Below are positions 633 through 58,114 of a DNA stretch of 64,000 bases, in pieces. The DNA is taken from the NCBI GenBank assembly GCA_003344405.1, contig NOWV01000152.1:1-64000 (forward strand). Direction: 5' to 3'. Every line of letters begins with the position of its first letter. Position 1 is the stretch's first letter. Origin of the DNA: Trichoplax sp. H2 (Eukaryota). A program made the position numbers and the translations under genes. A model generated the notes under the pieces. The model worked only from the letters and a program-made list of their open reading frames with translations. It ran no database searches and had not been told where the DNA came from.

Positions 633-2258
633 ATTGATTGAAAGCTAAGTTTTATAACACTATCCACTTTTGCGACGTCTAAATTTGGTGATTTAATATC
701 AAAAGAGGGAGATTTATAATTATCGTCAATGACGACTTTGTGACTACCTAATAAATTAAATTAAGTATTCAACTGAAGTAATATTTTTGTTTCAGTATAG
801 AAAGTAGTGGCTTTAAATTTTAAGATTCTTAAATGAATGCTATATGTGTTGATTCTGTCAATTGTTCCTTTATGACATTCGACAGCAAGATTCCGGCATT
901 AGTATTATACAATTTAAAACTTCAAAGTTTTAATCCTCCAGTTTTATGACTTTGAGAATTACGGAAATTAACTTGATTGCGCAATTAGATCAATTCAATT
1001 AAACCAAAGACGTAGTAATAAGAATAGCCGTTATAGAATTAGTCTTGATACACGGCACATTGGTAATCTCTGTAGCATTTGAAATAAGGAAATAGCAAGT
1101 AGAAGATTTCGTATTGACTCGGTTAATGAATACCATCAATGGCTTTATGAAATTGGTGAATAGGCATGATTTAATGATAGTCAAGTATGTATAGTTTTAA
1201 TCATTTTATTTATCGGAAGTTAGGTTGAGAGTTTCCAATTATTTTTATAGGGTACCTAAAACAATTTATAGTTGGTCTATTAGGTAAAAAAGGGGGTAAA
1301 TATTATCTATCTTGATAGAAAATTATCTAGATATAATAAATAGGACTAGGCGAATACCTTTCGAGCTCTTTTTGCCGGCAAGTTTATCCAATATTTAAGA
1401 GAGAAGTTGACAGTGCTAGAAGCTTCTTCGGCCATGTTCTGATGTGTTTGTATTTAAATGCAACATTACAATTCAATCATAGAATTTTGAATTACCTTTA
1501 CCTAGTAATTGGTACTATCCCTGATATTGCCGGAAAATAAAATTGAATAAGTCTATAATTAAAAAATCGGCGTCAAATACTTTATAATTCCTTCTTTTAC
1601 TATTTTTCGCGATCCTCAACATTATTTCACAGAAATATAAGCTTATTAGAGATGAGCATTAATTATCTTCATTTACTTGAAATTTTTCTGTCAATGAATA
1701 TCTATGTTTGTTGATTAGTTCTTTACTATATTTAGTAAATGATTTTGATATCCGATTGGTCTTATAATTATTTATTTTTATTGTCATTAACAATCAGTGA
1801 CATAAAATTTCTTGGCAAACGCTACAGTAAACAATAAACATCATTATTAAAGTTGTGGCATATCGTTTAGTGCGGTGTTTATCGTTTATTGCTGGCTACA
1901 TCTATCTTGCTAATTGATTATATTAGAAGAGTATATTAATGATTTACGATAGAAATAAGGTAAGATGATAGATTGGGGCATTAATCATATACGAAATGGA
2001 ATAGGCATCAACAAAATTATGTTAACATGATTTGTTGCAGTAGGCATTAACTTGTATGTTTGTCTTCCAACCCATTTCTTTGAATCATGATTGATTTTTT
2101 TATTATTTTACCATTAACTTCGAAAAATATATAGAGCCTAAATTTAATTGTTAAATGCAATTAAAGAAAACAAAAACGTAATAATAGGAGAGAGAACACA
2201 CACGAACAAGAAAAAGAAATCTAAAACGTACTCGCAACCAAGAGAAAGCAATTTTGCA

Positions 2259-12702: not shown

Positions 12703-12949
12703 ACAAGTTTGGTTTAGATCAATGACGAAAATGAAACGGACTCTTTGTCCAATACTTGAATTTAGTATTGGTTATGCATCGATCTTACAGCAGAATTGCA
12801 CTGGTGCAGTGGTCCTACCTGTTCCTGATTGATTGATGTTGTATTCAGTGATGCTGGTAGTAAGAAATTGAAGCACTAGATCGATTGCACAATGCGTTTT
12901 AGGAAAGCATTTAATGGCGGAGCTCCTTTGCCGAGTGTAGCAGAACAGT

Positions 12950-14090
12950 GCTCTGCCAAGAGGACTGGTCCAGTACGGTACTGGACTGTCTTGGCTCGAG
13001 CTGTATCGTACTGATTGCATCTCCGTCTTTACCCTACCGTACTGTACACTGTACAGTACAGTACAGTGCGCTTTCTCGTCCGCTTTTTACTGTACTGTAC
13101 TGTACACTGTACGTACACTACTGTACCATATACAGTACTGTAGCCAATCGCCGAAAATCAATAGGTCTGTATCGTATCTTCTAGGTCTGTATGCGTATCA
13201 GTATAGTATCTTCTAGGCGTTCAGTGAATACTGTGTACACTGTACTGTACAGTACGAAAATGGAAAAGTCCATTACAATACAGTACTGTTGAGAATTTTT
13301 ACAGATTTTACTTAAAAATTAGAACAAATCTATAGAAATGAAAGCCAGATTGACATTCCCGAGTTATTGGGCTACATCAATATATAAGATGTAGCCTACT
13401 TTGGGCTTGCTTTAGTCTACACGGCTTATTTTCCAGTCCCATGTTAACCCCGCTGTGTACAGTGTACAGTACAATAGTGTACTGTACTTCAGACAGATGG
13501 ACTATTGGTACTCAATGAGGCTGTCAAGCGAAAAATGACTACTGTACTGTACTTAGTATGGATCTTCCATGTCTATTTTCGAAATCACCAGCATTCATTT
13601 CGATCGCGTCTACGATCTTATATTACTTTTTTCAAGTAGAAATTTTGAATAGATAATAAGATTCAATGTAATATTACTTCATTTAGAAAACATGAGTCCA
13701 TTTAAAATCGACTATCTGCATACTAAAGTACTGCCTTTTGGACGAGATGAGGCCGAAAATATCTGTCCGTCCAATGATCTTTTTCTTCTAGTAGTCCATC
13801 AGTCAGTCCATGATACACCGAGTAAAACAGATTCATGTGGTACTGTACAGTACTGTACTGTACTGTACAGGTTACACAACAATCTCTACAGTACTTTATT
13901 GTTATACTGTACTGTACACTGTACAGGCTCTATAAATGCTCTGTAAAATGGAAAGACTTACAGTACCGTACAGTACCGCACGGTACTGTGGTTAGAGGAC
14001 TTGCACGGAGACAACGCCATTGGACTCTACTGTATGGGCAGTTGTTGAGTAGTTCTTGTCAGTATACGATAGGACGGATGGACGGATAGT
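12950..14090. repeat. CAGTA/TACTG-rich island containing a dispersed-repeat core
   Basis: Many tactgtacagta palindromes. The core at 13555-13810 resembles 46428-46697. Confidence 0.8.
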
Positions 14091-21433: not shown

Positions 21434-22252
21434 CTATATTTCATCAGCGTTACTATTTATACAGTAGCTTAGCAGTTTTTCTAATGCTGCTGGTCCATAA
21501 CTAGCTGCATCGGCTTGAACATCGTCTTCTTCAAGGTGTTGTCCGTATAAACTATAGCTTGAATGCGGTGAATATACACGCCATTCGTTACCGGAATAAC
21601 GAAATATACTAATATTTAAAAGCAATGCCGCCATTGCTGGTAAATATCGAAGTCTATTATTGCGTATGTCCAGTTCTTGAAGAGCAGTTAGTAAGCCAAT
21701 TTGGGATGGTAATCGAGAGATTAAATTATTAGCAAGCTTAAGGACTATCAGCGAATTTTTCCAAGCTTGGCAAATAGCGTCAGTAGATATAGAATCAATT
21801 AAATTGGAAGACATATCCAGATGCTGTAAATGCTTTAGATATCCTAATTCTGCTGGCATTTCTAAAAATTTATTAAAGCTTAAATTCAATTTTTTCAACT
21901 TTTGCAAATATTTCAGACTTTTAGGAAATGCCACAAAATCATTGCGGCTAAGGTCGACCGTTCTTAATTGGCGTAGATTTTCAAATATAGGCGATGGAAC
22001 AACATTTAATTTATTATCGGATAGATCAAGAGTTTGCAAATTGGACATATTAACTAACTGGTGTGGAACACTACCAGTTAATGAGCACCCAACGATATAT
22101 AGATGTCTTAAATTGGTCAATTTTTCGAGAATTCCTGGCGATATTTTCATTAATATTACTTGTGAAAGCAATAATTGACGAGTCACACGTGCTTCTCTTG
22201 CTTTGCTATTTAGAATGGCTTTAAGTTTAGGATTGGCGTCCATATCCATCAT
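21434..22252 (-). CDS. Intronless leucine-rich repeat protein (272 aa)
   Basis: Repeated LxxLxLxxN motifs (LQTLDLSDN, LRTVDLSRN, LKKLNLSFN, LQHLDMSSN, LIVLKLANN, LQELDIRNN). Confidence 0.9.
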   Translation of the reverse strand: MMDMDANPKLKAILNSKAREARVTRQLLLSQVILMKISPGILEKLTNLRHLYIVGCSLTGSVPHQLVNMSNLQTLDLSDNKLNVVPSPIFENLRQLRTVDLSRNDFVAFPKSLKYLQKLKKLNLSFNKFLEMPAELGYLKHLQHLDMSSNLIDSISTDAICQAWKNSLIVLKLANNLISRLPSQIGLLTALQELDIRNNRLRYLPAMAALLLNISIFRYSGNEWRVYSPHSSYSLYGQHLEEDDVQADAASYGPAALEKLLSYCINSNADEI

Positions 22253-22603
22253 GAGTAGTAGAGTCGTTCTATATCATCATACACAATCCAATATTTGCCA
22301 TTAAGGCTATTTTGACTTCAATAAGAAGTAGAATTTCACATGACATGTCAAATATAACATTGATGAAGGCCTTGACTTTTACCCTATAACGGAATCGTTT
22401 GACAATTGACAGTTAATAATATTGACTAATATCGTGCGAAATCGGCTTGAACTAGTTTGTAAATAAGCATTCTGTACGATTATTTCACGAAGAATGTTGA
22501 ATTTGCGCCATTGGATGACGAATGGTCTAATTATTATTTAATAATTACTATATAATTGTTATAACCATTATTAAGTACAGATTTGATTAAACCCTTGCTC
22601 TAT

Positions 22604-23464: not shown

Positions 23465-25173
23465 ATGGGTAATGAAGATTTCTATCAACGCCACATTACG
23501 AGGTTAGGGCAAGACCTAATCACACCTAATGTCGGCTCTTTTTGCACAGGTAATGCCCATTAATCAATAGTACCTTAGTATATCAAGTATCTCGTTGTAT
23601 TTGTTATTTTGTTAATGCTATACCTTGATGATTTTGTATTAGTTATCGTCACGGGGAAGCTCGTATCGAACAATACAATTATCGATTCTCGTTATGATAA
23701 AGAGGTAGAGTGGAAAATTGGTCAAGGTAAATAGGTTATGATATATAAATGATACTTATTATCTTTTTAGGATAGAAGTAATTCTATTACTAAGATAGTT
23801 GATCCTATGCTACCTTAACTTACTTTGCCTGCTTTATTTATATATTATATGCTTTTAATGATGGTACTTGCTCTTACTGCATATGTGACTAATGAGACCG
23901 TAATTTAAATAAAGTTAGTTTAGCTTCTAATAATGTTGTGATAATACTTCTATTTATGAAAAATTTGATAGGCGATACTGAACTATGTGAAGTGATTGAT
24001 GACTGTTTACAATCCATGCACGCCGGCGACATTTGCAATTTTACTCTAAAACCAGATGAAGCCTACTATATTCTCAAAGAAGAGGATATTCATATAGATC
24101 AAGATATCGAAGTTGTATATGAAGTTCAATTGAAGAAATTTATTAAGGTAAACTACGTTCGTCTTGGTTATACGTAGACTCCTCCTATCATCTATTATTA
24201 CTCGCTTACATTATATGGGTCTTTATTTATAATAATAATACAGGCAAAGGAGACTTGGTATTCTACTGTAGAGGAGCTGTTTAATGAAGCAATAAGTAAT
24301 AAAGCAAGGGGTGTAAATCTATACAAGGTCAAACTTTTAGTGATATCAGTACTTATGATACATTGAATGTCTATCACGGCTATATCTAAATACATTTATA
24401 CATACTTTTCATGGATACTTGTTTAATATTATTGAAAAATTTCTATATTAGAGCGGAAAGGTTATTGCTGCAGCTCGCAGATTCAGTATTGCCTTGAAAT
24501 ATTTAATTATTATGGAATCTGATCGCCTAGCAAGCCGAAATGATGAACATTGTATGCAAGATATGCGTATAGTATACTATGTATATAATAGAATACGGTT
24601 ACAATTTGTAGGGCGCAGTATGTTACTTAACTGGAGCTGTTAGCAGTTTACTCCATTTAATCTTAATCAATTAATATCTTCCAGCTAATCTCAGAAAAAA
24701 TTGCTATCTCAATCTTGCTACCTGTCAAGCAAAGCATAACATGCATCGATCAGTAATTGCCAACTGTTCGAAGGTTTTGAAATATTGTAAATATCACCAT
24801 TGGCTTTAAGGTAGCTGTTGTTAATAGTGTTTACATTATACTTACTCCGTAGGTTTTACAGATGGAACCAAATAATCTAAAAGCTCTATTTAAGCGCGGT
24901 GTTGCGTACACCGCTGTCAATGATTTTGATAATGCTAAAGCTGATTTAGAATCGGTTGGTTAAATGTTTACAACAATAATTTCTGTTACACGACAAATTA
25001 CAAACGAACTATATAATTTTAACTAGGATCAATTCTTTTATTAGGCAAAATTACAAGATCCGAGCAATAAGGCTGTCATAATGGCGATACAGAACTTATT
25101 TACAAAAACACTAAAGCAAAATAAATTCTATCAGCAAGCTTTGGCTGGCATGTTTCAGAGTAAAAGCAAGTAA
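23465..25173 (+). CDS. FKBP-like immunophilin: degenerate FKBP domain plus three TPRs (FKBPL-like)
   Basis: Spliced exons give TPNVGSFCT, IDDCLQSMHAGD, VYEVQLKKF, KARGVNLYK, CYLNLATCQAK, NLKALFKRG, DPSNKAV and a terminal LAGMF. The start codon is uncertain. Confidence 0.8.
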
Positions 25174-25515: not shown

Positions 25516-28500
25516 TTAGATCCAAGGCTTTGTGATAGCAACGCCACCAATAAGTAATAGTATTAACATCATCATGAAGCCTAAAGCACGGTCACGAGCC
25601 AGTCTATCGAAGTTGGTTAAAGAGAATGGGTATAATATATCGGAACAGCATTTCTTACTTATTTCCCTATCTCGCTCCGCTGACCTAAATTGAAAATTGA
25701 AAAAATTATCATACAGCAATGGCCTAATAACACCTACCTTATATAAAGAATGAAGATGACTTCAGCACTTCTAGTTTATACATACAATATATTAATATTG
25801 ACTTACAGTGGCTCATTGGTTTGCTGGATAGCAGGAACCTCAATAAACGTTGTGAATACTTTAACAATAAAAGGTTTAAAACGTGAACTGAAAGTTAATG
25901 TGGCAGAGGTAGAGTTGGAAGTTGGTGAGGTGGTATCGTTGACTTGTGAAGAACAACCATAAGCTCCACCAGTTCCACAAATAAAATCCCAGTCTTCCAG
26001 ATTATATCTTGAATAAAATATATAGAATAGTCATTAATATTTGCAGTATTTCTAAGCCTGATACAATCATAACTAGAATAACATACAGTACCTTATCTGA
26101 GCACCAACGATTTCCCATTCTAATTTGCCAATGGGCGCTGTTCTGACTTGAGCAGTGAGAAATGTCACATTTAAAGCCGCTGGTATCTCACTACATGAGC
26201 CACTAATGACGCTAGGATTACTTGTGAGGTTGTTGGTATAGACGGGATCTTCCCTAAGATAGGTAATTGAGAACAGATAGTATGCGTACGTTACAATAGT
26301 TAATAAATAAAGCTTCAAAATGATACGCTATCGGAACCCGCAATAAAAACTATCAAAATACGAGTCTAAATTAAGTTCTACATAATACTGAAGATCACAT
26401 GGAAGCCAAGATCTAGGTACAACTTTATTACTCTACGGATATACTTACTTGATAATCGACAGCCAATCATTGTTTAGAGTATCACTGGAATTGCCTCTTT
26501 TGCCTACATAATCAGCCGATATTGACCCATCTAATAATATTTTAACACGATCCCTTAACGCTGCACAATCTTGAAAATCGGCAATTGATAACGACAGGGT
26601 ACATCCACTAATTTCATCATTGCCAAATGTGACATCGACTCTACTGGAGCTATCGCATAAACCATTACTACTAGGTGACCATCGCCGCAAGTAAGCGCCA
26701 GTTGATACAATACTATTGCTAGAACCGCCGCCTATTTGATTTATAGCAAATAGGACGGGGTATTTCTTAAGATAGCCCGGATTACCAGAGTAACTAACCA
26801 TTGGTAAAACGGTGGTATTGTGAATAAATTGTACGCTAAATTGCTGCGTGAGAGTACTTTTCCTTCTACTAGTTGAACTAGAGGTTAAAGGAACTGAGCC
26901 CATAATTACATCCGCGATAATTCTATCAATTTCAGGTCCATTCCAGTAAATTTTATAATCTACCTTGGTAACAACATTATTGCATAGACTAGACGTAGAA
27001 TCGAGAAGTGGTGTGGGAGGTCGTGTTCTACCGTCGTCGAAGTTACACCTTCTTAGATTGGCAGGATTGTTATTTGTAGCTGATTGCCCATTAGTGATAT
27101 ATGGTGATATATCGTTAAGACAATAATAATTTACGGTTGCAGAAGCTACTATTGCACCAGTGAAAAGCTTTTTTACCGCATCAGAGATTGGACATGGAGG
27201 AAAGGATAGCGATCGTGACATTAAGTATTGTACTGCACTCCACGTTGATGTTGGCGTACACAAGGAATTGCTTATCAACTGAGTACAATGTGAATTTGAA
27301 TTTATGAGATATCTAACTAAACCTCTTTTGGTGCAGCCGCCTATGATTTGGCTAGGCAGAGCTAAATATCCAGAAAGACCGCCAGAAATATCTAAGACGA
27401 TAGGAATTCCATATTGATATGACACTGTATTTGTAACTTGACCAGAAAAGGATTGCAATTCTGACTCGCGATAACTGTAAATTGCACGACTAGCGGTAAC
27501 TAAGGTATTAAAACTGGATACGCTAGTAACAGCTGATCGAATAGAATAAAAAAAGCCAAGTAAAGGATTATTATCAACAGCCACGCACATTAGTGCTTCA
27601 TAATCTTGTTTATCTGGCCATATTGCTCGACAATCATGCTCTAATGGTCTAACAACAAACGGCCGTAAGCACGTTGTAAACGTAGCAATATCCGAAGCGG
27701 TACAATCCTAGCACGGCATATCAATAAATGGTTAGATTGATTAATGAAAAGCCTTTTTTAATTCGAAATTTAATTCTGTGTCTATGGGCACAAACTCAGG
27801 TTATACTTACCGAATCACAACAGCAATTAGGATCGCAAAAATTTACTTGTAAATTACAAGGACATGGAGCAATATCTGTAAATGCTGGATTGACGTTAGT
27901 TAGGATGCTTCCTGTATAATAATACGAAAAAATTGCCGTCTTTATTAATGAATTAATATACTATAATTAAATTATAAAAACGTATTTTTATAGTATTACC
28001 TGTTGTGATATTTTCAGGTACTATTGGGCTAAGATCTAAATTGATATAGGCCGTAGCATTTAGTCCTCCATATCTAGGATTAGTAGTGCTACTTCCTGAT
28101 GAACAGGTTATCGAAAACAACTGTTTCCAAGTTTGATCAATTGCTGGCGATGTAATCACATTAAGTGTCTTAAAGTATTCTCCAGACTAAAGTTGTAAAA
28201 AGTAACACAAATGAGCATATCACATTTGTCAATTACCTTATCAAAGATTTTAGTACAGAATGAATCAAATTTCTACCTGAAAGGCAATAGTTGATTGTGA
28301 TAGCGATACGGTTGCCAGTGTTCCGTTTGCTTGTACGATTGAGGAGGCAATTTGATTAGTACAGGTTGCAAGGTCTTGATTTCCTGTTTCACTGTAGTTA
28401 CTAATACAGCATGTAAAAATAGCTGCGAATTCAGCACTTGGGATGGGTATATTGACGGTTAAATATAGTGTAAGGTTACTTCGGTACATGTTATTATACG

Positions 28501-31500
28501 TTGGGATAAGACTTAACGCCGCAAGTTGTATGCGAAAAGTTGCATTTCGACCTATTAAGGCGAACACATCATTTAAATTGTATACAAAATATCGTTGTTT
28601 TCAAAGGGATGAAATTTAAATTTCAGATTATGCTAAACTTACTTGCTGAGGTTGCAGTAAGAAATTGTGTACCGGCGTTCGATGACTGTGCGGTACAGAT
28701 CACATATGCATCTCCTAAGTCTTGACTTGAAACAGTATAGCTTATCTAATGGTAACAATGACAGAGTAATTGAAATAAGTATTATATAAATGGCTTTCAT
28801 TATAAATTGGGGACGAATATTAATTGAAGATAGTTTAACATACGCTAGCTATTCGAATTCCTATAGCAACATTCTGCTGGACAAAGGTAACTTGCGCAGT
28901 ATTACTACTAACAGTGTTGCATGTGATAACGACAGGATTATCAGCCACACTTCCACTGTAATATGAGAAAAATTGAATAATTAGCCTTTCTCTTTCTATC
29001 GGGAGCCGAGATATGTTTATGAGAATTTCAGGATACCTCAAGTCAATCCTTGCAGTGCCAGCTCCAGTTACCGGTACGACCACAACATCTGAGCAAAAAT
29101 CAGCTCTGGCAGCTTTTACCACGCGTATTGATCTGATGTACCGACAAAGTAGAAGAAAATTTAAGAATTGAAGTACTAATTATTCTCAATGCAAGGTTGG
29201 TTTACCCAGTCAATCCCACAGAAGTGTTGCTTAGGAACTGGGTGCCTCCAATCGATTGAGCTGAGCAAGTGATGGTTGCTGCTTGACCAGGCGATGATAT
29301 ACTGTATGGTAAAACAAGATTTGTGATAAAATTAAAATAGGACTTATAGATCACCATCAAAGATTTTAATTTAAATCTCTCATCGATTGCATTTATATTT
29401 ATTGACATATAGTAAGTAACTAAATCAATGAGGTATTACACAAAACTTAATAAATATTATAATTATATACCACATTACATTTATAAAATTATATGATTAC
29501 GTGTTTAATTAATACTTGTCATTCTTGGTATACTTCAGTAGTATAATCGTAATTTCGATTATGTGATAATTCAACATTAATTAAGTATATCACATTACAA
29601 GATTACCATCGTTACACGTTAAACTATACCCAAAATAATCCTTACTGATTATTTGTACGGTAGTAGATGTATTATTTCTACGATACGTGGTTTTATCCAA
29701 AATATGCTAACTTACGTTGTATAAATATGGATCTAACTACACATATTCGTTTATAATATAATTTATAATCATTTTATATCATAATCCGAAATATAGTTAG
29801 TGTCCATTATAATGGTAAACAGCTCATGTACACATAACGAGTCGTTTTTTAATCCATAGAGAAGTAAGAACCGAAGTATTCAATTTCTATATGCAGTAGT
29901 TTTGTATTTTTACATCAACTTTGGCTACGTGTACAATTTTCTGCCTTCAATGCTAGTTAAGAGTAGTGCAAACCTTCAGTGCAGTGCTAGTATTAGCTTA
30001 ACAGTTAAACCTAACAGATATTAAAATGGTAACATTGCAACATTTAAAGTAACATTACCTGTAGGAAAGACTGCCAGAGTTACTACCTGGTGGGATCAGG
30101 ATCGTACCGAATACTAAATTTGTTATATCAGAAGCTGCATTTGAAACTCTACACGTTACGGATACCTACAGTAGATAAAGTTAACCTTAAGTTCTTAATA
30201 GCAGGCATATAAATTAACAGCCACATAATATAAAGCATTTAAATTTCTGCGTTAGACTAGCTGAGAACGATAATACCGGCTAACAGCGTATTTAACCGAA
30301 ATTGAATTGCTGACATAAATTTCGTTGCATCTCACGTTCAGTTGTTTATAATACACTAAAGTCATTACACTTTAAATATGATCTGAAACGATGACTTACA
30401 TTGTTCGCTATCACATTTTCACTTAATTGAACTGCAACGTTACCAGTTCTCTGATTTTCCTGCTGTGTTATAGTGGCTCTGTTAACGATATTCACTACGG
30501 CTTGATCTATTGAGATATATCAATGGATTTCGTGACATATAATAAAATTATTCTTTTCAAGTAGATAATAAAGTTAGAGATGGGTAAAACAAATTATTAA
30601 ACGAAAGAGCCGTAGGGAATACGGAATAGTAAAGTTTTTTGGTCTATAACATAGTGTTTATACATATACGCTCGCATACATATAATAAATTACGACAGCA
30701 AGTAATTTTTGCTTTGTTTGCGGTATATTATTGATTGATAAAGTCAAGTGCATAAGCTATCATAAGTAGATTAAATCTTCTAAGTAAGTATTATAGAATG
30801 AATATAGACCTTTTTATTTTAATACTTACTTTTTTGGCACATATAGCTCGCCAATTGCGTACAACTTTCATCGAACCATGACCATTGAGGGTCGGCAGTA
30901 ACGCAACGTTGATTAGTATTACTTGGCTGTCCGCTGGCCCAATTAGTATAAATAGTTAATGATGCCCCATCAGTCCAGCGATAATCAGCTAAATTATTGG
31001 CACCATTTTGATCACGGAGACCAATCCAAAAACTAGTAGTAATATTGACGAAAGTATCTTGTAATATATTGACAACAGTGCCACTTGTAATAACTATTAG
31101 ATCGCCATTCAATTGTCTGCAACTTGTTCTTGCTGCTTCCCAGCTAAGTTGTTGATCAAAATGACGATAACATTTATTTTCAACATCGGCCCAACCATTG
31201 TTCGTATCGCAGCTATCCACTAGAGATGGTTGGATACAATAATGATAGGATGTAAGGGTATTCATATTTAGGAATATTATCATCAGCATCATGACTTTAT
31301 GGAATAAATAAATTCATTCACATACTTCTAGAAAACAATTTGACTCTTACATGATTGCGTCAATTCTGTTGTTAGTCAATATAAAGTAAACTACTATACC
31401 TTCACGATCAATCTAATGCATTGCAATCATTGCTGGGGTACGTGTAAGAAAATGCTCTACTACTACTATACAGTCCTTAAATCATAAAGCAAAAGCAATC

Positions 31501-32146
31501 AGAAGTAGGTTTTGATGGACTGTGCTCTATGTTTATTTATTTACTTTTTATTGAGATGGCATACGTAAGTAGAAATTGATGTATACGCGTACATCCTATA
31601 CAGTTTTGATAATGCGCTAGGTGGTAGTATTTTAGCGGATCAATTGTCAATAGAACTTAGTATTCCATTTAAAAAAAATCACTTTTCCAACTTTGATTCA
31701 TTATTATGATAACGGTACATATATGTAGTCTTATTGAGTAATATGTAGTTATTTTCGAAATGTATTGCAAATCAACTACAAGCTTGCATCCAGCCAAGGT
31801 AGGATGCAATACGGGCGCAAAAAGGAGTGAAATGATAAAAATTCACATTGCTACTCGTATTTCAGTAAGGCTATACTCGATGATGGTGGACTACTAGCCC
31901 TTGCAATGACTGCTTTAACTCCTTATCTAAGTAAAGTTTACCCTCGATAGTACTATTCCATTGGATGATTATTAACGACTTTAGTACAGAACATGAAAAT
32001 TCCAGATCGATGAAGGACTAATTGTTAAGGTATTCCGCTAGAGTAGAGTATACTGCATTAACAATGCTATCTTTACCTTGATGAATATTAGAAATGAAGA
32101 GTAATACACCAACGAAACTGCATAATAATTTGCTTTTACTGGACAT
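25516..32146 (-). CDS. TCTN2: Tectonic-2-like ciliary transition-zone protein with signal peptide, N-terminal C-type lectin domain, three beta-sandwich repeats, tectonic domain and C-terminal TM
   Basis: Tectonic Cys motif CPCNLQVNFCDPNCCCDSDC, LMCVAVDNNPLLGFFY, CNNVV, SGNPGY and C-terminal CCSDILYPF...TM...KPW. The CTL exon has CY, WEAARTSC, FWIGL and WFDESC. The upstream exon phases join without frameshift. Confidence 0.82.
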
Positions 32147-33197
32147 GACTTGCTAGGCAAACAGTCGTTTGGATTTTTGATTTCTAATAGCGCCACATTG
32201 GCTCCCTGTCAGCTTGAGCGAGTTGATGAATTAATTAATCAATTTTGATGGATTTGGAGCTCTGGGCGTCATGGAGATGAGAGATAATAGCTTCCTCCTC
32301 ATGCTACAGTACATTGTACCGTGGTCATCGAGTACAGTACTGTAGTAACATGGAGTGGTGTCATGGCCGACTAAGATTTGGTAGTCCACTACATACAGTA
32401 ATATTATTCACGGTCAATATGGTTAACAGTATCCCCAAATCATCGACCATAAAACTATGTTACATGAAGTAAATACGAATATGTTGATGTATTTTCTGAT
32501 CAAAACTTTTAAAAACTGTCTACGCAAGAATAGTGAAGGCATACAACAACGCAGATCATACGATTTTTTCCCGGTGTTAGACGACTTAATTGCAACTTCA
32601 CGGACATATTTACTAAAGTTTACCCCAACTGTCTATGCAAGAATAGTGAAGGCATACAACAAGAATTTCTATATACTTGGCCATCTAAAAATCTGAAGAA
32701 TAGTAAACATAGCGTACAACAACAAGTGATACTGTCGGCAAGGATTGACTATAACAGTACTAGTACACTGGTAGAAAAGGCTTTTTGGAAAAATCAATAC
32801 AAGATTTTATACTGAAGCTGCTAATATAATGTTCCAATAGAAAAATTCTCTTGCAAAAAGCTCAACATAAGCCATGAATTATAACTATAATTACAGGTCA
32901 TAACCTAGCCTGAAGGTTTACTGTAAATTACTGTACTGTCTGTATGTCTCTACCAAGGCTCCAAGCCATCATATTGTTGATGGAATGCATGGATTACTAG
33001 AAATTTTTACCCTCAAATTTCTGATCAACTGGGAGAATCCATGGAGATTTTTCTATACTGCATCTGTATGATGAGGCTACAGTATGTATTGTACAGTACT
33101 GTACTGTAGTACTGTAGAGTTTGAACTGTAGCTCTTGTTCTACCGTACTGTACTGGTCTAGGGTGCAAACGGATACGCATGCGTCCTAATTTGAACC

Positions 33198-36100
33198 ATG
33201 GCGACCGGGCAAATTGAAAATATTGAGGTAGCAAGCAGAAGAATAATTAGAAATAATATCGGTTATGTCTTAATATTACATAGATATCATTGCATAACTG
33301 ACGTACAAAGTTGTCTTCGATCGGATCATTGTAATTATATTATAGCTAACATTGTTGAACTATCGAAGAAAATTAGCATTATTGAAGAAGGTTGTAAAGA
33401 AACGTCAGAATTAGATCCACGTTTCTCTTGATCGTTGCATTTTGAGCAGTTGTTATATTGCAGTGGGTTAGCATTCCATTCAACATCGATTTGACTTAGT
33501 AGAAAGTTTTGCATCAATTTAGTGCTGATAGTAAGCTTTCTGAAGGAAGATCGACGCTGTAATCGATCAGTACAGTACAGTAGTTTTATTCTTTCTTTAT
33601 CAATGTTTCTACGCGTATAGTGCAGTTTATAGCGATCTATTTGCAAGTGCTGCAATCATTGATTCAGCTGGAGAACGATATGGTAACGTATCTATCATCT
33701 CTATTTACATATCCACATTAATGGAATGGTAGTTTGAAGAAACATCAAAACATTATATTTTTTCCATCATTTCTGCACATTGTAAAGGATAGGCCACAAA
33801 AATCGAATCACGATATAAGATATACAGTAGTAAGCAGATGATAGTGGTTCTGCTATAAACTTGGACACATATTATAAGCATAATTTACAGTGTAATATTT
33901 TATGTTCTTGTTGTACATGTGCTGTCATAATTATTAGAAAGTTTTGCATCAATTTAGCACTGATAGTAGGCTTTCTGAAGCAAGATTGACGCTGTAATCG
34001 ATCAGTACGGTATAGTAGTTGTATTCGTTCTGTATCAATGTCTCTATGCGTATAGTGCAGTGTATAGCGATCTATTTGCAAGTGCTGCAATCATTGATTC
34101 AGCTGGAGAACGATATGGTAACGTATCTATCATCTCTAGTTACCTGTCGACATTAATGAAATGGTAGTTTGAAGAAACATGAAGCAATATATTTTTTCCA
34201 TCATTTCTGCACATTGTAAAGGATAGGCCCCAAAAATCGAATCACGATATAAGATATTCAGTAGTAAGCAGATGATGGTGGCTCTGCTATAAACTTGGAC
34301 ACATATTATAAGACATAATTTACAGTGTATTATTTATGTTCTTGTTGTGCATGTGCTGTCATAATTTACTGTAAAGTTAAAGCAACTGCATGCCATTATT
34401 CTAATAATAATTTAGACTGTGCTAATTGAGAGACTAAGTTCGGTATTTTACTTCGCCTGTAAACTAAGTAGTCACCCTTCATTACTTTTTCTTCAAATCT
34501 TGAAATGCTCCACGTCTAAAATTATAAACGAAAAAGATTGTATTGAATATATTTAGTATAGTTATGTGATAAGAAATTGTACGTAAGACTGATTCAAAGA
34601 TGTTTTTTTGTAGGTAACATGATCGATGTAAATAGTATGCAACAATTTAACCTCATTCATTGACGAATATTAATATGGCTGTGATTGCGAAGAATAGATG
34701 CAATTATAGAAAATCTTTCATTCTAAATATTCATTCAAGTAGTGCCTTATTTCTATTCATTTTTTGGTAGGTACGCTACAGCTCTATATGTCAGAAACCA
34801 TTACGAGAAAGATGCCAGGAATTGACGACTTTAACAACAGAATATCATATTAGAGTATGTATTCGAGATCATTTCTCACTGTAAATGAGATTATACTTAT
34901 TGGAAGTAGTAAATCCGACGTAAGAAATGACTTTATGGTGGTCATTACCGTAGGCCGATACTGTAGATGCTTATTACAGTCTACACTTGTATAGAAAAAT
35001 TTAACCCCTTTCTACGTTTCGCATGTGCTGCACAGTTAGATACTTTAAGTTGTTAAAAATTATGTAATAACTTTGAGAGAATTCTTTTCGCTGTTTGCAA
35101 GCTACATTGCTTTATTATTTCATTTAGGAATTACAACATATCTTTCCACAATTGGTACGGGATATCTTCGGCTGTGGAAAAAATCATGATTGGGGTATTT
35201 TTTCTTCTCATCGTGTACACGATCGATGGGATACCGATACATTAGAAAACTTTCTGTCCCCTTACGATGGTGGCATTTTTGGTATGATTAACAAATTAGA
35301 AAGAGAAGAAATACGATTTGATTATCCTCTAAAGAACATACCTGTAAGTTATAAAATATCGATAAAGATTTTATTTTGCAATGTTGTATTTATTATACCA
35401 TCATTCACTTATAACACTATACCCAATGAATACATAGATGGTGTCCCGAAATCAGCTACAGCAAGGAATTAAATCAATGTTTTACGCTAAACGAGTCAAG
35501 ATACAAACTTATCATAACAATTGTGAAATGATTATAGGTCTTTCCTTATGTATCCTATTTTTTTGCTATTCGTACAATCTTATAGTAGGTATTCATTTAT
35601 AGTAATAAGCTTGCAACAAATTAGAGTGTCTCTTGTAATGTCTTTAATACCTAAAACCTTGATTTAAAATTAATAATTGAGGAGTCTACAGACTATGTAT
35701 ATTCAAAAGATTTTCCTGCAACATCTTTCTCTGATTCATTCCTTAACGGATCTTATAATTAGCTGCTTTCGACTACTATTTCTTTCATTTTGCATCTTCA
35801 TTGCTAACGGCTCCAGAACTAATGTCAGGGGTAAATTAAACTGTCTTAATATCTTTTCAAGAAATATCTGTTTAATAATCTTGCGGTAACTGAAGTAAAA
35901 CCTTACGTCAAAATGCATTATACTCAATAGATCATCTTAATTTATTTTATATAGCTAGCACTAACTACGAATATGAACGAATCAGACGATTTGTATTGTA
36001 AATTAGTAGAGAAGTATTTAAATTACTTTTTGCCCGCCGATGGATCACCAATTAAGTCGACTGCCTTGGGTATGAACAAGTCTATCGCTACATCTCCAAC

Positions 36101-38837
36101 CAAAATTATCACGAATAGGTATCTACGCTTATTATATTATGAAAGTACTACGAAATACAGTACTCGTAACTCAGTTGTTCTCAGGCGGTGTCAGTAGGAA
36201 GTGCGATTTGAATACTAATTAACTACACTAGGTTTCATGGTAGTCGCTTACTCAAGCCTACTATGACAGTAATGGAAGAATCATTTACCGGCTGTAGCAA
36301 TTCAATGAAAGACGCAGTAGAAAGATCTGATGCCTTAGTTCAGGTATTTTATTGTCTTTGTTTATTAAATATCCTTGCACTGTTGCTACTTTGTTAAGAG
36401 TAATACTTCTGTAGTGATTCTGCTGCATTGTTATGATAATTAATGGTATCTAAAATCTGTTATCCATCACGTAATAGATATTTGCTGAAATTTGGCTAAA
36501 TTGCAATAATGAACAGGAAATTACCCAACAGAATTCTTCTAATATTTCCTCTTCATTTCGAGTAATTTACCTAGAATAAAATATTATATTTTTAATGCTG
36601 TAAATCTAATAGAACTACTTACATCTTCGACGGTGTTCTTTAGTAAGTCACACATCTAATCCAGTCTATAATTAATTATTAAAATAGATGCAGCAAAATG
36701 CCAGCACTGTGCCGTCCTACGATCATGTACGAATTGTTCGGCGCTTTATAAAACATATGCATTACTTTTGCAACTGCAGTAAAGGAAAGGTAGCCAGTGA
36801 TGTCATCAATTATTCTCTTAATAGTACATTTTCTGCTACTGAGAGTTTAAGAAGGTACGTGTACTTTGGCTGGACATTTATAAAATCGTCTACAAATGAA
36901 TCCACATAATTAGGATATACTGCTAAACGAATTACGTTATGTTTTTGTTGACTAGAATTGCAATCCCTGAGTATATAGCGAAGAAGCTGTTTGGATTTCT
37001 TCAGTTTTCATTTGACCACTGGCCAATGGATTCTAGTTTTCGTGTGGTTAGCTTTACGTTCAGATCTTTACTAATCTACGTAAATTGATTGGGCATCGTT
37101 TAAATTTAATTCGACTTATTTTTTAAAAGGTTTTGGAGACATGGTTAAGCTATTTACAGCCATGGAGATATCTTGATATTAATGAAAAGCCACTGCCAAG
37201 TAGTATGAGTGATGCAGCAGATATTAGAAAATGGTATAACAGTTCTGAAATATAGTTATTATACGTCGGATAGTAAACAATGTCCTTAGCTAAAGATTGC
37301 TTTATATTTTAGGAAAGAGTTCGTTTTCAACAACATAGGCGTATATTCCATTTTATTTCATAAATATCTCCTTCGGGCTCTAAGATCTGATTTAACAAGT
37401 ACAAGGGAAGCACATCTGTTGATGAGAGTGTCCAAAGTCATGAACCAACCTGGATTAATGAATATTATCGACGAAGGTTAAACTTTAACATATTTATATT
37501 TCATACATATTGAATTATATTATTAACGGATGAAGCAAAAATAATCTCTGTAGGTGAAGCACTTCTGTTATCTGATAATGGTAGAATGATGGAATCTTAC
37601 ACTAACAATGAACAGCAGGCATTGACAAATATGCAAAAACATCTTGATAGTCTATCTATAATTTACCAGCCGATTTTAGAACCAAATATGAGAGACATGG
37701 TATAGTGCAACGAATATATTGATTTAAAGTACCAATTTTAGTCTACTGCACCATAGCTAGTAGATCACAAGCGGGAAGAAATAGAGAATTCGATTATTGA
37801 TGAATGCCTTCTTTCTATGCTATTAGATCAAAAAGCTGTTAAAGATCATTATTGAAGCGACTCGAAAACTTAAAATGACTTCTGAAAAAGCTCAAAAGGC
37901 TGGTTTTATAAATTCCGTAGTTTCCTATTTTAGCGCAGAATTTGAAACAGAACAGGAGAAAGATGCTACTAAGACCATACAATATCTTGAACAGGCCCGA
38001 TATTGTATTACAGAAATGTATCAAGTGAGTTTATTTTAGATTTTATAGTAGTAATAGTTTGATAATAGCTATATGGCTAAGAGTATTATAATTTTTGTTT
38101 CATATTATTAGATATCCCAATCCGAGGAAAATACAATATTAGCAAATGTTGAGAGCCAAATGCCTGGTAATACTCGTACTAATTTACCTGACCATACTAT
38201 CACCGGGTCTGGACTCACCTTAACACCCTTAGGCAGATATCAAGTACGTCTAATTTCCTTTAAATTGAAAAAGTAACTGTTCTTAATTACGAGCTGGGAT
38301 ATCAAATTTTAGGTTATGAATGGACTTAGAAAGTTTGACCGCTTGCCTGCTCGAGTTAGCCTTGCTAACAGACCTATACGACGTTCCTCTGAAAACGCAT
38401 TCCTAGCCCGCTTTTTTTACAATTTAGCAGTCTACATTAATATCTACGTAAGCTTGTAGGGCTGTAAATATCTCATTTGTCTTACTATGTATTTACTTGA
38501 CTAGTTTATAATATCTAATTTTGATAAAATTATTTACTATCCTAAACCGTAGGTAATGGGCAAAGCTCCTACTGACGATCCTGGCATGATTGCAGTGTTC
38601 TTACGATATTTTGCCTCTTACAGTTTTATCTGCTTGACGTCTTTAATATGCATATTTATGTTTTGTTCATCGATATTTCGTATATCTGTTATAATTGCTG
38701 CGGTCGAAAGTGTAACTAGTAACTTCATAATAATATTTTTTTTGATTCTATCACTATGGACATTTAAAAGTTTAGCTATAGTAGGATATCAACAATTTCA
38801 TGGTAATAACAGAAGGAAAAGAACCAGCGTAAGATAG
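33198..38837 (+). CDS. SMPD4: Sphingomyelin phosphodiesterase 4 (neutral sphingomyelinase 3), multi-exon
   Basis: Peptides [74 protein letters not shown] and LRYFASY, followed by a C-terminal TM. The first exon (33198-33227) is less certain. Confidence 0.9.
33500..34366. repeat. Tandem duplication of ~435 bp (33500-33934 and 33935-34366) within the inferred first SMPD4 intron
   Basis: Both copies start tagaaagttttgcatcaattt and end gctgtcataatt, and are highly similar throughout. Confidence 0.92.
35550..35762 (+). other. U12-type (minor spliceosome) GT-AG intron in SMPD4
   Basis: Donor GTATCCTA, branch site TTCCTTAAC at 35739-35747 about 15 nt before the AG. Removal restores GLSLS-AFDYYFF in frame. 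Confidence 0.85.
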
Positions 38838-39401
38838 CAATATAGTTTTAAACTTAGCAGTGTAATGCTGTATCACATCAGTAATGTAGTATAAATAATC
38901 CCTATACGTAACTTATTGATACCACTAAAATCGATGATGGAATTGTTGCTATTTTATGAAACGTTTTTGTTAAATTCAGTTAACATTAATTATGAACATA
39001 GCCAGGTGATGGAGTTCATGCAAGGCTCAAATTGATAACTACACCAGGCAATATACCATTAAGATCAAGCTGTTACATGATATCTACTGCATGTTAACCA
39101 ATTCATATAGTTCGATTTTACTGGTATATTGCCAAATCAAATATTATAAGTATCAATGGGCTACGCTAAAATGTGATAAAAATGTGCGTATATACTTTAA
39201 ATTTATTGAGATTAAAATACATTTAACAGACTGCGTATAATAAATTGCTTTTGCAAGTTGGACTTCGAGAAAGGGAATTTACGGGTAGAACTAGTCGCAC
39301 GATCTAATCTATGCCTAGATGTTGATAGGACATGCTTCTAACATTCTAAAGCTATTCAATGTCATAGTATACAATGGACTACATAAATTAATTTTACATT
39401 A

Positions 39402-42400
39402 CTATTTCGTTAACATTTTACGAAAGTCATCATTGCTCAGTTTGCTGCTAGAATTATTACTGGATTCAGAAGTAGTACTATCATTCTTTTTTACTGATCT
39501 TGGGACCATAAAAGACAGGCCAGTTCGACCACGTCCACGACTACGTAACAAAACAATTTACATTTATATTATTCTATAGCAAATCATCCAGGATGATGAG
39601 TAATAAAAAGCAACTATGCAATGTAATTATCAGTATATTTACCTAGTAACTGTAGGCACGTCCGAAGTCGATCGATTTTTGCTCTCGTTACGTTCTCTAA
39701 TTTCAGGCTTGCGATTCTTCTCAAATTCTGATGTTTCCTTAGCATCAGGATTTGATATTGCTACCGATATCGTTACACCATCAATTTCAGTGTTATCTAA
39801 CGTCTTGACTGCGTTAGCTGCTGAAGCCTATGCAATATCAATTTGCAGGTATCTATCACTTGCTTATCTAAAATATGTTTAGCTTCGCTGTATGTACCGA
39901 GTATTCAGCCAACTATACAGAATTAAAAATTAACGTCTAGATGTTTTCGCTACCTCATTGGAAAATTCGATATAAGCGAAACCTCTTGACCTTCCCGATT
40001 TTCTAGCAACACATCTAATGTCTCGTAAACCTTCAAACTGGAATATTAAAATTATACAGTTAAATAAATGATTGTGATTAACTTGTTACTGTATCACCTT
40101 TTCAGCGAAGAGTTCGTAAAAACGCCCAATGACTCACCTGATTGAATACCTCTCGAAGTCTATCAGATGAGATATCTTTAGTATTTTTAACAAATAGTGT
40201 ACATCGATCCATTCCAGATCCAAACTGTTAAGGAAGCGTGGTAAGATTGCCGTTAAAAATTCGCAACGTATTCTTGAAAATATATAGATTTAGGCATGTT
40301 GATGTAAAAGAATCCCTGTCGTACCTTAAATTCAGTAGGGTGCTTCGATTTGTCTACATTTTCAGAAACATACACAGGTCGGCCAGCTATAGTATTCCTA
40401 TCAAGTTTCAAAGCTTCTTGTGTCACCAACTGAAGGAAATACATCACACAGAATTAGTTAAATATGAAATCTATTACTGCAATAAGATAACAATCAAGAT
40501 TTAAAAGTGATTAGGATATGATTTCTAAATCGGCTATACCTCATCTTCAAACTCTACGTAACCGTAACCTTTAAATTTTCCGTTAGGTGCTCGTACTAGG
40601 CGAACATCTTTCACGTTGCCACACTACAGATAGTAGATACGAAATTCAGATGTCATAAGTATTTAACTATATAACATTTCGTAACTTTAATACCAAGTAA
40701 GATCTACCGTTGAAAAAAAACTTCTAATGTCGTCTTCCACTGCACTGAAGGGAACATTACTGATAAATACAGAGGTTTTCTCGTTGTACCTATGATAAAA
40801 CAAGTTAGCATTATACTATCACGACTATACGACATATTTTTAAATAATAATATTAAATAACATTGCTCATACTAATTAATAAAATAGTACCTTTCCCTTT
40901 CTCTACTCGGGTTATTTAGACTGCCATCAGCTAGTTCAAAAATAAGATAGTTATACCGTAAGTGATCTAAACTAATGTGTTAAGGGAATTCAATAGAGTT
41001 TACAGCTGTTGCATACTTCTACTTTTTTTCGTAATTCCTGATTCCTTACGACTATCGAAATCAAATTTTCGTTTCTCTCTAGAGGGAGCCTATATAACAT
41101 AAAATTATTATCTATATAGTAACAATACTTTAACGTTGTAGCTACGTGAAGAAAACAAAGACATCCGTAATCACATCTGCATCTATTTGATTTCTTTCTG
41201 CAACCGTCTGAGCCAACTTTCGATTGATTCGATCTTGCATTTTAGACCTTTCTTTTTCTTCCTTTCTTTTCTTCTTTTCTTCTGCCTCCTTTTCGACAGC
41301 CTTTGATTCATTTAATAATTAGTTGGACATGACGATATATAGACCGATTATTATTACCTTAACTATTACCTTAGCTCGCTTTTGAGATATTACTTGAAGT
41401 TGATCTTGGCACTTTGCATTCGCAATGTCCCAATCTGACAATTGTCCTAATATAAAAACGGTTCAGATGATCTATCAATTTAAGAAACAGCGAAGCACAT
41501 TTGCCAAGAAATCATAAACAAATTACCTTCTTCTCTTTCAAAATCAAGCCAAGCTTGGCATATTCCTTCAGGGTCGTCATTAACTGCTCGGATTGCACGG
41601 GAGAATAATTTTTGACAGTTTTGAATATCACCGTATGCCCTATTATATTATATTTACAAGGAAGCTACTATTAGTTAGACGAATAATTTAGCAAAAGTAA
41701 ACCTATAATAACATCAGTTATGCATTTCAACCTTTCGAGTTCAATGTATTCAATCCAGTATGACGCTTGTCTTTTATGACCAATATTTAATAATTCTTCA
41801 CGTAATTGACGACATTTTTCAATATTATTGAAATGTCGAGCCTGTTCAACGAAAAGTTGTACTACTTTTTAAGTTCTTGCGTCAATATAATTACTCGAAG
41901 TGCAAGTTTAGTTTAACAGCAAGCTAACCTCAATTTTAGCCCAATATTTTTGTAAATAATCAATAGACTCTACAGTTTCGTATCTATTATCTGTGTGGGT
42001 TAGACATACGTATGTCGTTAGCTAGTTGCATAAATTCAGTGTAACCGTCAGTGAATAATATGAAAAGGTAACTTACATATATGGTTCAATGCAGCCTGAA
42101 AAGTATCTCTTAAAAGCGTTATTTCCTCACTGTCTTCTAAAATACGTATAATTATTGTAAGATAATGATCAGAGACAAATAAAAATTTTACGTCCTAAAT
42201 AAAACTGAGTATTATTAGTTACCTCCACCAGGTTTGATATTTCTTCGCAAACGATCAATATATATAAGCCATAACGATAAATCATTTTCCATACTACCGA
42301 GATTGCAGTTAAGAGCTGTTGTTACCGTATCTAAATAATTCATATAAGGAAATACCAATGAAAATAAATAGTTAACAAATATTTACTGGAAAGTTACTAT

Positions 42401-47214: not shown

Positions 47215-47992
47215 CCTAGTGTCGACGATGGCTATAATAGTTGCAAATATCATGTCCACGAAAGGCATTGGTTTGGTGTTTTCTTATTAAAGCATCGATC
47301 GATCTGGACGGTAGATCGAGGCCTATATACGCCGCAAAATATCTTGTTGATAACCGTTGTTGCCTTGGTCATTTTGCATTTCCTTCTTTTTATTCGCCAT
47401 TGCACTAGATATACACTCATTACAATACAAAACATTGATTAACACTTTAGGCCATCTTTCATCGTATGAAGAAGGATGATGAACATTCGATATCCCTAAT
47501 CCTGACAATGGGCTATGGCTGGTGGTGTGGTATATCCACGGTTGGCATTGATATGACTTAACTAAGTACTTTATGCCCAATACTTCACTCTATTACATTG
47601 ACTTTACGGCTAGAAATAGCCTACAATTAATTGCTACAGTAATTATAATTGTCATTGGTTTTGGCCAACCTATTTGGTTACGATTGATGTAAGTTCAATA
47701 ATAATTTAACAACATAATTATCGCCATCATTATCCATGGACGGGGGATATTCAATTTGTAAAGATTATCATGAGTCCTCAGTATGGAGTAGCACGATAAA
47801 GGGAGACCCACGTAGACGTATATATGCATTTCTACAAGTAGCCCATGGCAGATACGATTACTGCATTTCAATCCAATACTACTGAATTTTTAGAAATCAA
47901 TTGATTGAAAAATTTGTCTTTTTTGTTCTATCTCTCACTCTTTCTTCATCTTTCTCTCCTGACAGTAACGATCTCATTCAAATTACCAGAGG

Positions 47993-49135
47993 ATGGCTTC
48001 TTTGACAAATTGTAACTGTACTTTGCGCCGAATTGCTTATTTAGTCATTGCCTCACTCATTGTTGGACAAGTTCTAATGATTTATCATGTCATTGTTAAA
48101 AAAGATGCTCATAAGTATAAAGTACACCAAATTAATGTATCATTCCATAAGAATTATTCTTCCGATCAAGATAATGATGAATTTACTGATATAACCAGCA
48201 ATTTCTCCAGTGTTGTCATTGACAAATTAAAATCAGAAGCTACTCTAAATAATGTATCTTTCCTGGCGCCTATGATAGCATCGCCGACGGCATGTGAATC
48301 AATGAATTATCTATTATTAGTTATCAATTCCAAAGTGGAACATGCTGGACGCCGCTTAGCGATACGACAATCGTGGGGAGATGCCAAAAATATTGACCAT
48401 TTCAATGAAAAGGCAAAAACAACCAAAGCTGCTCCACCACTAAAATGGAAATTAATCTTTATCGTTGGTCGTTCCAACACCGCTGATATCAATAAGAAGA
48501 CAGAAGCAGAAGCCAAGCAATATGGTGATTTAATTATTGGAGATTTTACCGATTCAATGAAATCGTTAACTTTGAAAACAGTCATGGCGATGCAATGGGC
48601 TAAACATTTTTGCTCTCCTGCAATTTATTATAAAGGTGACGATGATGTCTTTGTCAATCCTTATTTACTTTATCAGATCGCTGAAGGTTATGTTCGCAAT
48701 AACATTAAGAAAGAATGGATATGCCGTGCTCATATCCATCCTATAAGCCGTAGGCCTGTACGTAATAAAAGGCATCGCTATTACGTACCTTATAGTAAAT
48801 ATCGTCAAAAGTTATTTCCTTATTTTTGCTCTGGTTTTGCCTATGTTATGACGGGTGATGCTTTAAGCAGCATGGTCAGTGTTGTTAAGACGACTCCAAT
48901 CATCGATTCAGTAGACGATGCTTTTGTTGGCATATTAGCTGATAAAGTTAAAATAAAACCAAAGCACGATAAAAGATTTAAAGTATATGATCGCTACGAT
49001 CGTCGCCCCAATAGATTTAATAGGCCTAATGTTGAAATTGAACTAATGCGAAAGACACTCGCTGAGCATGGTATTTACTATCTAAAAATGAAAACCTATA
49101 TGGCCAACACTAACAAGGCTATGCTGGTAAAATGA
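47993..49135 (+). CDS. Beta-1,3-galactosyltransferase / GT31 family type II membrane glycosyltransferase with intronless CDS
   Basis: N-terminal TM and motifs RRLAIRQSW, EAKQYGDLI, LTLKT, KGDDDVFVN (DxD), PYFCSGFAYV and DDAFVG. Confidence 0.92.
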   Translation: MASLTNCNCTLRRIAYLVIASLIVGQVLMIYHVIVKKDAHKYKVHQINVSFHKNYSSDQDNDEFTDITSNFSSVVIDKLKSEATLNNVSFLAPMIASPTACESMNYLLLVINSKVEHAGRRLAIRQSWGDAKNIDHFNEKAKTTKAAPPLKWKLIFIVGRSNTADINKKTEAEAKQYGDLIIGDFTDSMKSLTLKTVMAMQWAKHFCSPAIYYKGDDDVFVNPYLLYQIAEGYVRNNIKKEWICRAHIHPISRRPVRNKRHRYYVPYSKYRQKLFPYFCSGFAYVMTGDALSSMVSVVKTTPIIDSVDDAFVGILADKVKIKPKHDKRFKVYDRYDRRPNRFNRPNVEIELMRKTLAEHGIYYLKMKTYMANTNKAMLVK

Positions 49136-57260: not shown

Positions 57261-58114
57261 TACGCATTATTATTATTGCATTATAACTTTGTTTGTGGTA
57301 CTTCTATCGTATTCCTGACCAGCCTAGGATAAGGTCTAGAGGCCATGTAAATCTCCATTTTATGAATAACTACATTATTGTCGTGTTCAATACTAAGGAG
57401 CGATTGGGATTCAAATGCAGCTTAGGAAGCCGACCATTGAAGAGGTACAGGACATTACTGCAGTCCAATCAATGTCAATTTCTATTTGCTAAAAGAACTA
57501 CAACCTTGTCAGGTTCAACAAGAAGCAATTAGAATCCCAATGCAGCTTAGGAAGATCGCCATTCAAGAGGTCCATGCCTGCAATTCAATCCTAGCAAGCT
57601 TACGTGCTTTAGTAGGGAGTCATTTTTCACTACAAGTCAGCCATAGATCAAGTGATGCGCTGCAGTAGGTGAAGCACTAAAACAGTGACAGAAATGATAG
57701 TACATGCCTAGACATGAAACGACGTGACCTTTACCATCACGTACTGGTGTGAGTCGAATCAATGGCGATACGATAGTTGATCACCAAATGGCAAGTATCC
57801 ATTTCGAGCTAAGCTTAGTGTTATATTGGTAGACAGTTTTGTCAAGATGATTACTCTGTTAATGACTTTGTATTATTATTATCAATTAGCGAATTGAGAG
57901 TACCGTTGGATGGCGGAATAGCGAGGATAGTATCTTATTGGATCGCCAAACAAGTTAAAAGCCAAAGAAGTGCTTGACGAAAATAACGACACAGTATTGC
58001 AGTGGGTTGATCCAGGGACCCGTGAGCAAGAGAGAGTGATGCCACTGGCTCTGTTATGACGATGATGTGAAGATGTGACAACCGATGGAACGTCAATCTC
58101 CTTGCGACGATGCA

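Follow-up and report, generated by a model that had tools for sequence, protein, structure and literature searches.

The window analysed here is a stretch of 64,000 nucleotides from Trichoplax sp. H2 (positions 1 to 64,000 of contig NOWV01000152.1, assembly GCA_003344405.1). Its minus strand carries, between 25516 and 32146, a predicted gene of the tectonic family with an exon for a C-type lectin-like domain (CTLD) near its 5′-end. From stop-to-stop open reading frames (ORFs) a script assembled 15 exons and 14 GT...AG introns into one frame. The joined coding sequence (CDS) is 3435 nt long and specifies 1144 residues, with its sole stop codon at the very end. A first-pass annotation, made by a model from the letters alone, had proposed a Tectonic-2 fused to an N-terminal C-type lectin domain through phase-compatible GT-AG introns free of internal stops, and this joining was borne out at 14 of 14 introns. 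Introns 1, 2 and 4 are 857, 323 and 757 nt long, respectively, and the others range from 73 to 234 nt. The individual parts of the gene are given in Table 1.

Table 1. Parts of the predicted tectonic gene, with positions in the window
Feature	Position	Strand	Description
Exon 1	32146-32077	-	70 nt, 23 codons + 1 nt, donor GTAAAG, phase 1
Exon 2 (C-type lectin-like domain)	31219-30830	-	390 nt, phase 1-1
Intron 2	30829-30507	-	323 nt
Exon 3	30506-30400	-	repeat copy 1
Exon 4	30165-30059	-	repeat copy 1
Exon 5	29301-29206	-	repeat copy 1
Exon 6	29132-29037	-	repeat copy 2
Exon 7	28955-28844	-	repeat copy 2
Exon 8	28745-28643	-	repeat copy 2
Exon 9	28551-28277	-	N-terminal region, no Pfam family
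Exon 10	28186-28000	-	N-terminal region, no Pfam family
Exon 11	27911-27811	-	DUF1619_N, cysteine-rich
Exon 12	27707-26449	-	419-codon core, TCTN_DUF1619
Exon 13	26253-26092	-	C-terminal region
Exon 14	26007-25807	-	C-terminal region
Exon 15	25684-25516	-	ends with stop codon at 25516
Exons 13-15 together	26253-25516	-	ectodomain C-terminal part, single transmembrane segment, four-residue tail, stop

Exon translations of at least 20 amino acids (n = 14) were scanned against Pfam at the curated cut-offs, and 11 of the 14 had no match above cut-off. Exon 2 matched Lectin_C (PF00059) over profile positions 2-107 of 107 (E = 1.2e-19, 71.5 bits, cut-off 22.6). The complete lectin exon had been placed at approximately 30829-31219 in the first-pass annotation, which was right to within one base. 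The tectonic part named there was present as well: exon 11, which is cysteine-rich, matched DUF1619_N (PF25752; E = 3.4e-05, 24.7 bits, cut-off 22), and exon 12 matched TCTN_DUF1619 (PF07773) in two stretches (E = 2.4e-18, 67.5 bits). Chance falls far short of explaining these findings. An Rfam scan gave no match in the window.

The lectin exon bounds its domain exactly, from a pyrimidine-rich ...CTCTAG acceptor to a consensus GTAAGT donor, and both of its phases are 1, fitting the donor of exon 1 and the acceptor of exon 3. Six cysteines, at model residues 27, 40, 57, 129, 143 and 151, make up the intact long-form CTLD set, and the WIGL motif is readable in the translation. In the Protein Data Bank (PDB) 116 distinct sequences matched exon 2 at E≤1e-5, the best being the CTLDs of PLA2R, DEC-205, MRC2 and CD23; among single-domain chains the MRC2 CTLD (1.8e-12) and CD23 (6.2e-12) scored best. 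The ESM Atlas returned only generic Lectin_C clusters for this exon. Base composition and codon usage of exon 2 lie within the range of the other exons (GC 0.397, GC content at third codon positions (GC3) 0.287 and codon log-odds 0.42 per codon, against 0.393, 0.286 and 0.37 in exon 12), and both wrong frames score negative.

In C-type lectins, EPN or QPD, the next glutamate and WND jointly hold the calcium ion and the sugar. This motif set for calcium-dependent carbohydrate recognition was not found in exon 2. Aligned to the fourth CTLD of P0152, a fish mannose-receptor-like protein in which these positions are EPN, E and WND, exon 2 reads QPS, Q and WFD. Of the five canonical calcium and sugar residues, two to three are thus replaced (QPS for EPN/QPD, Q for E and F for the N of WND), and because of these replacements classical calcium-dependent sugar binding is unlikely; the first-pass annotation had already called carbohydrate binding uncertain on account of the QPS. 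A protein or an unusual ligand would be more likely than a sugar, in line with most CTLDs of the best PDB matches.

The tectonic identity of the remaining gene was assessed with exon 12, for which an exhaustive search of 1.84 billion representatives returned 402 matching proteins at E≤0.001; lengths of 950-1370 amino acids (aa) are frequent among the best 150. The close relatives are P0153 (404 aa, 73% identical) and P0002 (185 aa, 70% identical). In a 60-sequence alignment the cysteines of the exon 11 motif were kept in at least 90% of the sequences (C476, C478, C485, C489-491 and C495 of the amphioxus homologue P0001 described below). A hydrophobic stretch of about 19 residues ends four residues before the C-terminus, and the structural model of P0001 has a helix at 1098-1122. 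A sequence search of the PDB with exon 12 gave no tectonic structure, only chance matches at E>0.05, and the ESM Atlas gave no usable match for it. Taken together, the Pfam domains, the predicted signal peptide and the C-terminal transmembrane stretch place the predicted protein in the tectonic family. In a 2025 paper (PMC12723291) DUF1619 is still described as the only conserved, and unannotated, module of the tectonic family.

A FastTree phylogeny of 82 core regions paired the window protein with P0153 (support 99). Both fall in a cluster of 32 rows, of which 25 are long forms of 950-1370 aa, apart from the clusters of 550-720 aa proteins; the support of this cluster was 88, and it was not starred. 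The comparison set was without named vertebrate TCTN sequences, the only close relative with a database name being P0001 of Branchiostoma, and the label Tectonic-2 given in the first-pass annotation is not established by this sequence comparison.

The N-terminal part of the protein, between the lectin domain and DUF1619_N, is built from repeats. A module of about 104 residues is present twice, encoded once by exons 3-5 and once by exons 6-8, and the two copies align with a local score of 93 (z = 9.1 from 300 shuffles); repeat exons had likewise been noted in the first-pass annotation. Exons 9-10 align to beta-rich segments three and four of P0001, which form strands in its AlphaFold2 model. 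P0001 is the NCBI entry 'uncharacterized protein LOC144919484' of Branchiostoma floridae x B. belcheri (1126 aa); it was found with exon 12, as were a sea anemone protein and P0153. A blastp comparison of residues 170-1143 of the model with residues 51-1125 of P0001 was colinear, with no rearrangement, at 30% identity (E = 4e-137). This colinearity validates, at the level of sequence, the assignment of exons 3-15 to one gene.

P0001 runs from its signal peptide directly into the same repeats, without a lectin domain. The repeat region of exons 3-10 matched ten stored proteins at E≤1e-3. In the nine full-length ones the match begins 22-53 residues from the N-terminus, which is space enough for a signal peptide and nothing more, compared with 153 in the window protein, and this shift of the repeat start corresponds to the CTLD. 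The approximately 360 residues of N-terminal repeats are ancestral to the long form and not lineage-specific, a point missed in the first-pass annotation, the novelty being confined to the lectin module of 130 residues.

The stalk was modelled by AlphaFold2 on the amphioxus homologue and not on the window protein. Based on the 60-sequence alignment, the model of P0001 reached a mean pLDDT of 78, with values above 90 over most of residues 30-320, where consecutive all-beta domains are found, and the N-terminal half of long tectonics is confidently predicted to be a beta-sandwich array. Such a layout is typical of the ectodomains of adhesion and receptor proteins. Foldseek matched the model to titin immunoglobulin tandems, integrin alpha legs, cadherin, the Calx-beta domains of NCX1 and ciliary central-apparatus proteins; since the global TM-scores were low, nothing beyond the generic term 'tandem beta-sandwich stalk' is warranted. 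In long tectonics the N-terminal 400-560 residues (28000-30506 in the window; P0001 and P0003-P0034 in the library) had no Pfam family in the 36 proteins scanned, and their repeat module is a candidate for a domain family not yet described.

No other in-frame ATG lies between the preceding stop and the ATG at 32146, which opens the 70-nt signal-peptide exon that the first-pass annotation had placed there. The encoded peptide has the n-h-c layout, with a positively charged n-region, a hydrophobic core of 12 residues and a polar c-region. Alternative phase-1 first exons were scanned in the approximately 9.5 kb of 30507-40000 by a heuristic of our own rather than a trained predictor. The scan gave 17 rows from 7 distinct ATGs, and exon 1 was alone among these in combining a charged n-region with a hydrophobic core free of interruptions and a donor close to the consensus. 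Intron 2 contains 7 ATGs, but just 2 nested ORFs extend as far as a phase-1 GT, and both are unlike a signal peptide. Since the colinearity with P0001 places exon 3 near the mature N-terminus, a signal-peptide exon is required upstream of it. With no alternative in intron 2, and exon 1 as the sole convincing candidate, the tectonic transcript must either skip over exon 2 or include it, and the lectin exon in both cases lies inside the tectonic transcription unit.

Domain content was checked in the best 150 of the 402 tectonic matches. Lectin_C was detected by Pfam in none of the 36 proteins of at least 750 aa, and in the remaining 114, scanned as two sets of 57, only PF07773 (55 and 55 members) and PF25752 (16 and 25 members) were present. 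The count of tectonics with Lectin_C among these best representatives was accordingly 0/150. A phmmer search of 154 stored proteins with the lectin exon recovered the positive control P0152 only and none of the 153 tectonic relatives. The absence of a lectin domain, stated in the first-pass annotation for vertebrate TCTN1-3, was thus seen for other tectonics in both searches. Full-text literature searches, including papers on DUF1619, TCTN2 and the transition zone, yielded no description of a tectonic with a C-type lectin domain, nor is one described in the available parts of PMC3495828, PMC12723291 and PMC9695228. The architecture was found to be neither widespread among the relatives nor described, and as judged from sequence no tectonic seen here other than the window protein has a recognisable binding domain.

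The CTLD is among the most mobile of animal domains. No other lectin exon that could be the source copy of exon 2 was found in the 64-kb window, and in a search of the longer proteins its best database relative was P0152 alone, at about 30% identity. The exon is thus not a recent undecayed copy, and by these sequence comparisons it appears resident and intact rather than freshly inserted. As a check for transposon capture, direct repeats flanking exon 2 were sought and none was found, only three short and weak inverted repeats; a recent transposon insertion of the exon was rejected on the lack of flanking direct repeats. The acquisition of the CTLD looks like exon shuffling, in which one symmetrical phase 1-1 exon would have entered the phase-1 intron that separates the signal-peptide exon from the first of the repeat exons.

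The product of the locus may be depicted as follows: A single gene would encode a 1144-residue type I membrane protein, laid out as signal peptide, CTLD, two beta-sandwich modules of about 104 residues, two beta-rich segments, DUF1619_N, tectonic domain, transmembrane helix and a tail of four residues. From exon 3 onward this would be the ordinary long-form tectonic backbone as in amphioxus, and the CTLD would form the membrane-distal tip of a beta-sandwich stalk. By homology with the family as described in PMC12723291, the protein is inferred to belong to the ciliary transition zone, where almost all of its mass, including the large N-terminal part, would lie outside the membrane.

The reading that we favour, with moderate confidence, has exon 2 included by splicing in one or more tectonic mRNA isoforms. 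The phase-compatible model and the presence of both domain sets, as first proposed, stood up to analysis; the fusion as such is deduced from splice phases at the DNA level. Several points weigh against this reading. P0002 and P0153, the close relatives, are fragments that cover the tectonic core only, and a single-sequence AlphaFold2 model of the CTLD had a pLDDT of 38 and was discarded. The occurrence of the architecture in 0/150 relatives makes it new and at the same time leaves it without comparative support. Skipping of exon 2 would preserve the frame because the exon is 390 nt long and of phase 1-1. Read-through of its donor meets a stop codon after three codons (30821-30819), with an ATTAAA at 30823 and an overlapping AATAAA, as seen by eye. 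Upstream of the acceptor, moreover, the frame of exon 2 remains open over another 31 codons with ATGs among them (31292), which would allow a free-standing lectin ORF of about 158 codons. The DNA fits a tectonic isoform that skips the lectin as well as a short isoform for a secreted lectin.

The frame-neutral skipping, the stop beside the poly(A)-like hexamers and the open stretch before the acceptor, where the ATGs are followed by a short hydrophobic stretch, all fit a locus with two products, in which the tectonic mRNA joins exon 1 to exon 3 and the lectin exon is found only in the transcript of a short secreted lectin of about 158 residues. This transcript would consist of exons 1 and 2 with intronic polyadenylation, or of the single-exon ORF from 31292 to the stop at 30819, and the fused protein would never be made or be a minor isoform only. 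Every other long tectonic examined joins its signal peptide straight to the repeats, which fits this arrangement as well. We nevertheless consider it unlikely, although it deserves attention, since exon 2 has kept an exact consensus donor and a good acceptor in the sole fitting phase, for which an independent gene would have no reason. The hexamers, moreover, are common in this AT-rich DNA (12 non-overlapping in 7.1 kb), an open stretch of 31 codons has a chance of about 10% as estimated from base composition, and the peptide from the upstream ATG is without a charged n-region and has a hydrophobic run of only eight residues. The lack of the architecture among the best 150 of the 402 matches would also fit an unexpressed relic, a copied exon in tectonic intron 1 that is ignored by the spliceosome or decaying, and introns 1 and 2 are indeed longer than most others, intron 4 excepted, as expected around an insertion. 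A relic of this kind is however quite improbable, given a frame intact over 130 codons with its six cysteines and WIGL core, native codon usage with only the correct frame positive, and splice signals equal to those of the constitutive exons; a close source copy is missing from the 64-kb window and the best database relative is only 30% identical. Within the favoured fusion, that the fused protein is the main product, and that a tectonic has in this way gained a ligand-binding lectin-like head by exon shuffling, is put forward tentatively.

Tectonics are components of the ciliary transition zone, are required for the formation and composition of cilia, and are encoded by ciliopathy genes; we know of no role assigned to their large extracellular part. 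Should the fused protein be the main product, the ciliary gate would also be an extracellular receptor or anchor, linking the base of the cilium to the glycocalyx, the matrix or a neighbouring surface. It would be the first of the tectonics in which a binding module can be recognised, and would hint that all tectonic ectodomains bind something extracellular. If the fusion is expressed, the small domain offers a testable handle on such an extracellular binding role. If it is unexpressed, the locus would be a clean case of a phase 1-1 domain exon caught in a phase-1 intron, that is, of the raw material of exon shuffling.

Other features of the window and of the protein library were recorded alongside. 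An FKBP-type gene on the plus strand (exons in 23896-25173; FKBP_C, E = 3.3e-05), with putative TPR-type frames further on as seen by eye, is convergent with the tectonic gene, on whose 3′ side about 350 nt separate the two coding regions. Upstream of the tectonic gene, 1.35 kb from its start codon, a 435-bp unit occurs in 2.0 copies with 92% identity (33496-34366); its minus-strand frames include the similar ORFs 33335-33655 and 33872-34090, one of which was without a Pfam family. A plus-strand frame of 591 codons at 2148-3923 joins a NIT domain for nitrate/nitrite sensing (E = 3.1e-30) and an HNOBA segment to the catalytic domain of a guanylate cyclase (E = 2.6e-34). It represents a membrane NIT-guanylate cyclase such as has been discussed for placozoans and annelids. 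A leucine-rich-repeat frame of 279 codons at 21434-22273 on the minus strand (LRR_8, E = 1.7e-25) and a single-frame galactosyltransferase of 388 codons at 47969-49135 on the plus strand (Galactosyl_T, E = 3.2e-38) are ordinary neighbours. Simple-sequence runs of the ACAGTACTGTAC type occur at 430-515, 12772-13946 and 57882-58217, and yield long spurious frames rich in S-T-V-Q-Y on several strands, which are not genes. In the representative library, P0146 (1020 aa) has arginyl-tRNA synthetase catalytic and DALR domains before its tectonic domain, and most likely represents two adjacent genes merged by the gene predictor.

Compared with known systems, the window protein is closest to the long-form tectonics, represented by P0001 and about 25 proteins of 950-1370 aa, which share the signal peptide, the repeats, DUF1619_N, the tectonic domain, the transmembrane helix and the short tail, with colinearity to P0001 extending over 975 residues; it differs from them by the lectin domain, which they lack. 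PF25752 and PF07773 are held in common with TCTN1, TCTN2, TCTN3 and the Chlamydomonas TCTN1. Vertebrate tectonics are about 590-700 aa long, and relative to these and other model tectonics the window protein has about 520 extra N-terminal residues, made up of the CTLD and the repeats. The single predicted transmembrane segment is shared with the membrane-spanning members of the family as described in PMC12723291. On the lectin side, the mannose-receptor family (PLA2R, DEC-205/LY75 and MRC2) and CD23 likewise have a long-form CTLD with six cysteines and a WIGL core. Most CTLDs of PLA2R and DEC-205 are, like that of the window, without the full calcium and sugar site. In contrast to those lectins, the window protein has one CTLD, which would be carried at the tip of an otherwise unrelated protein.

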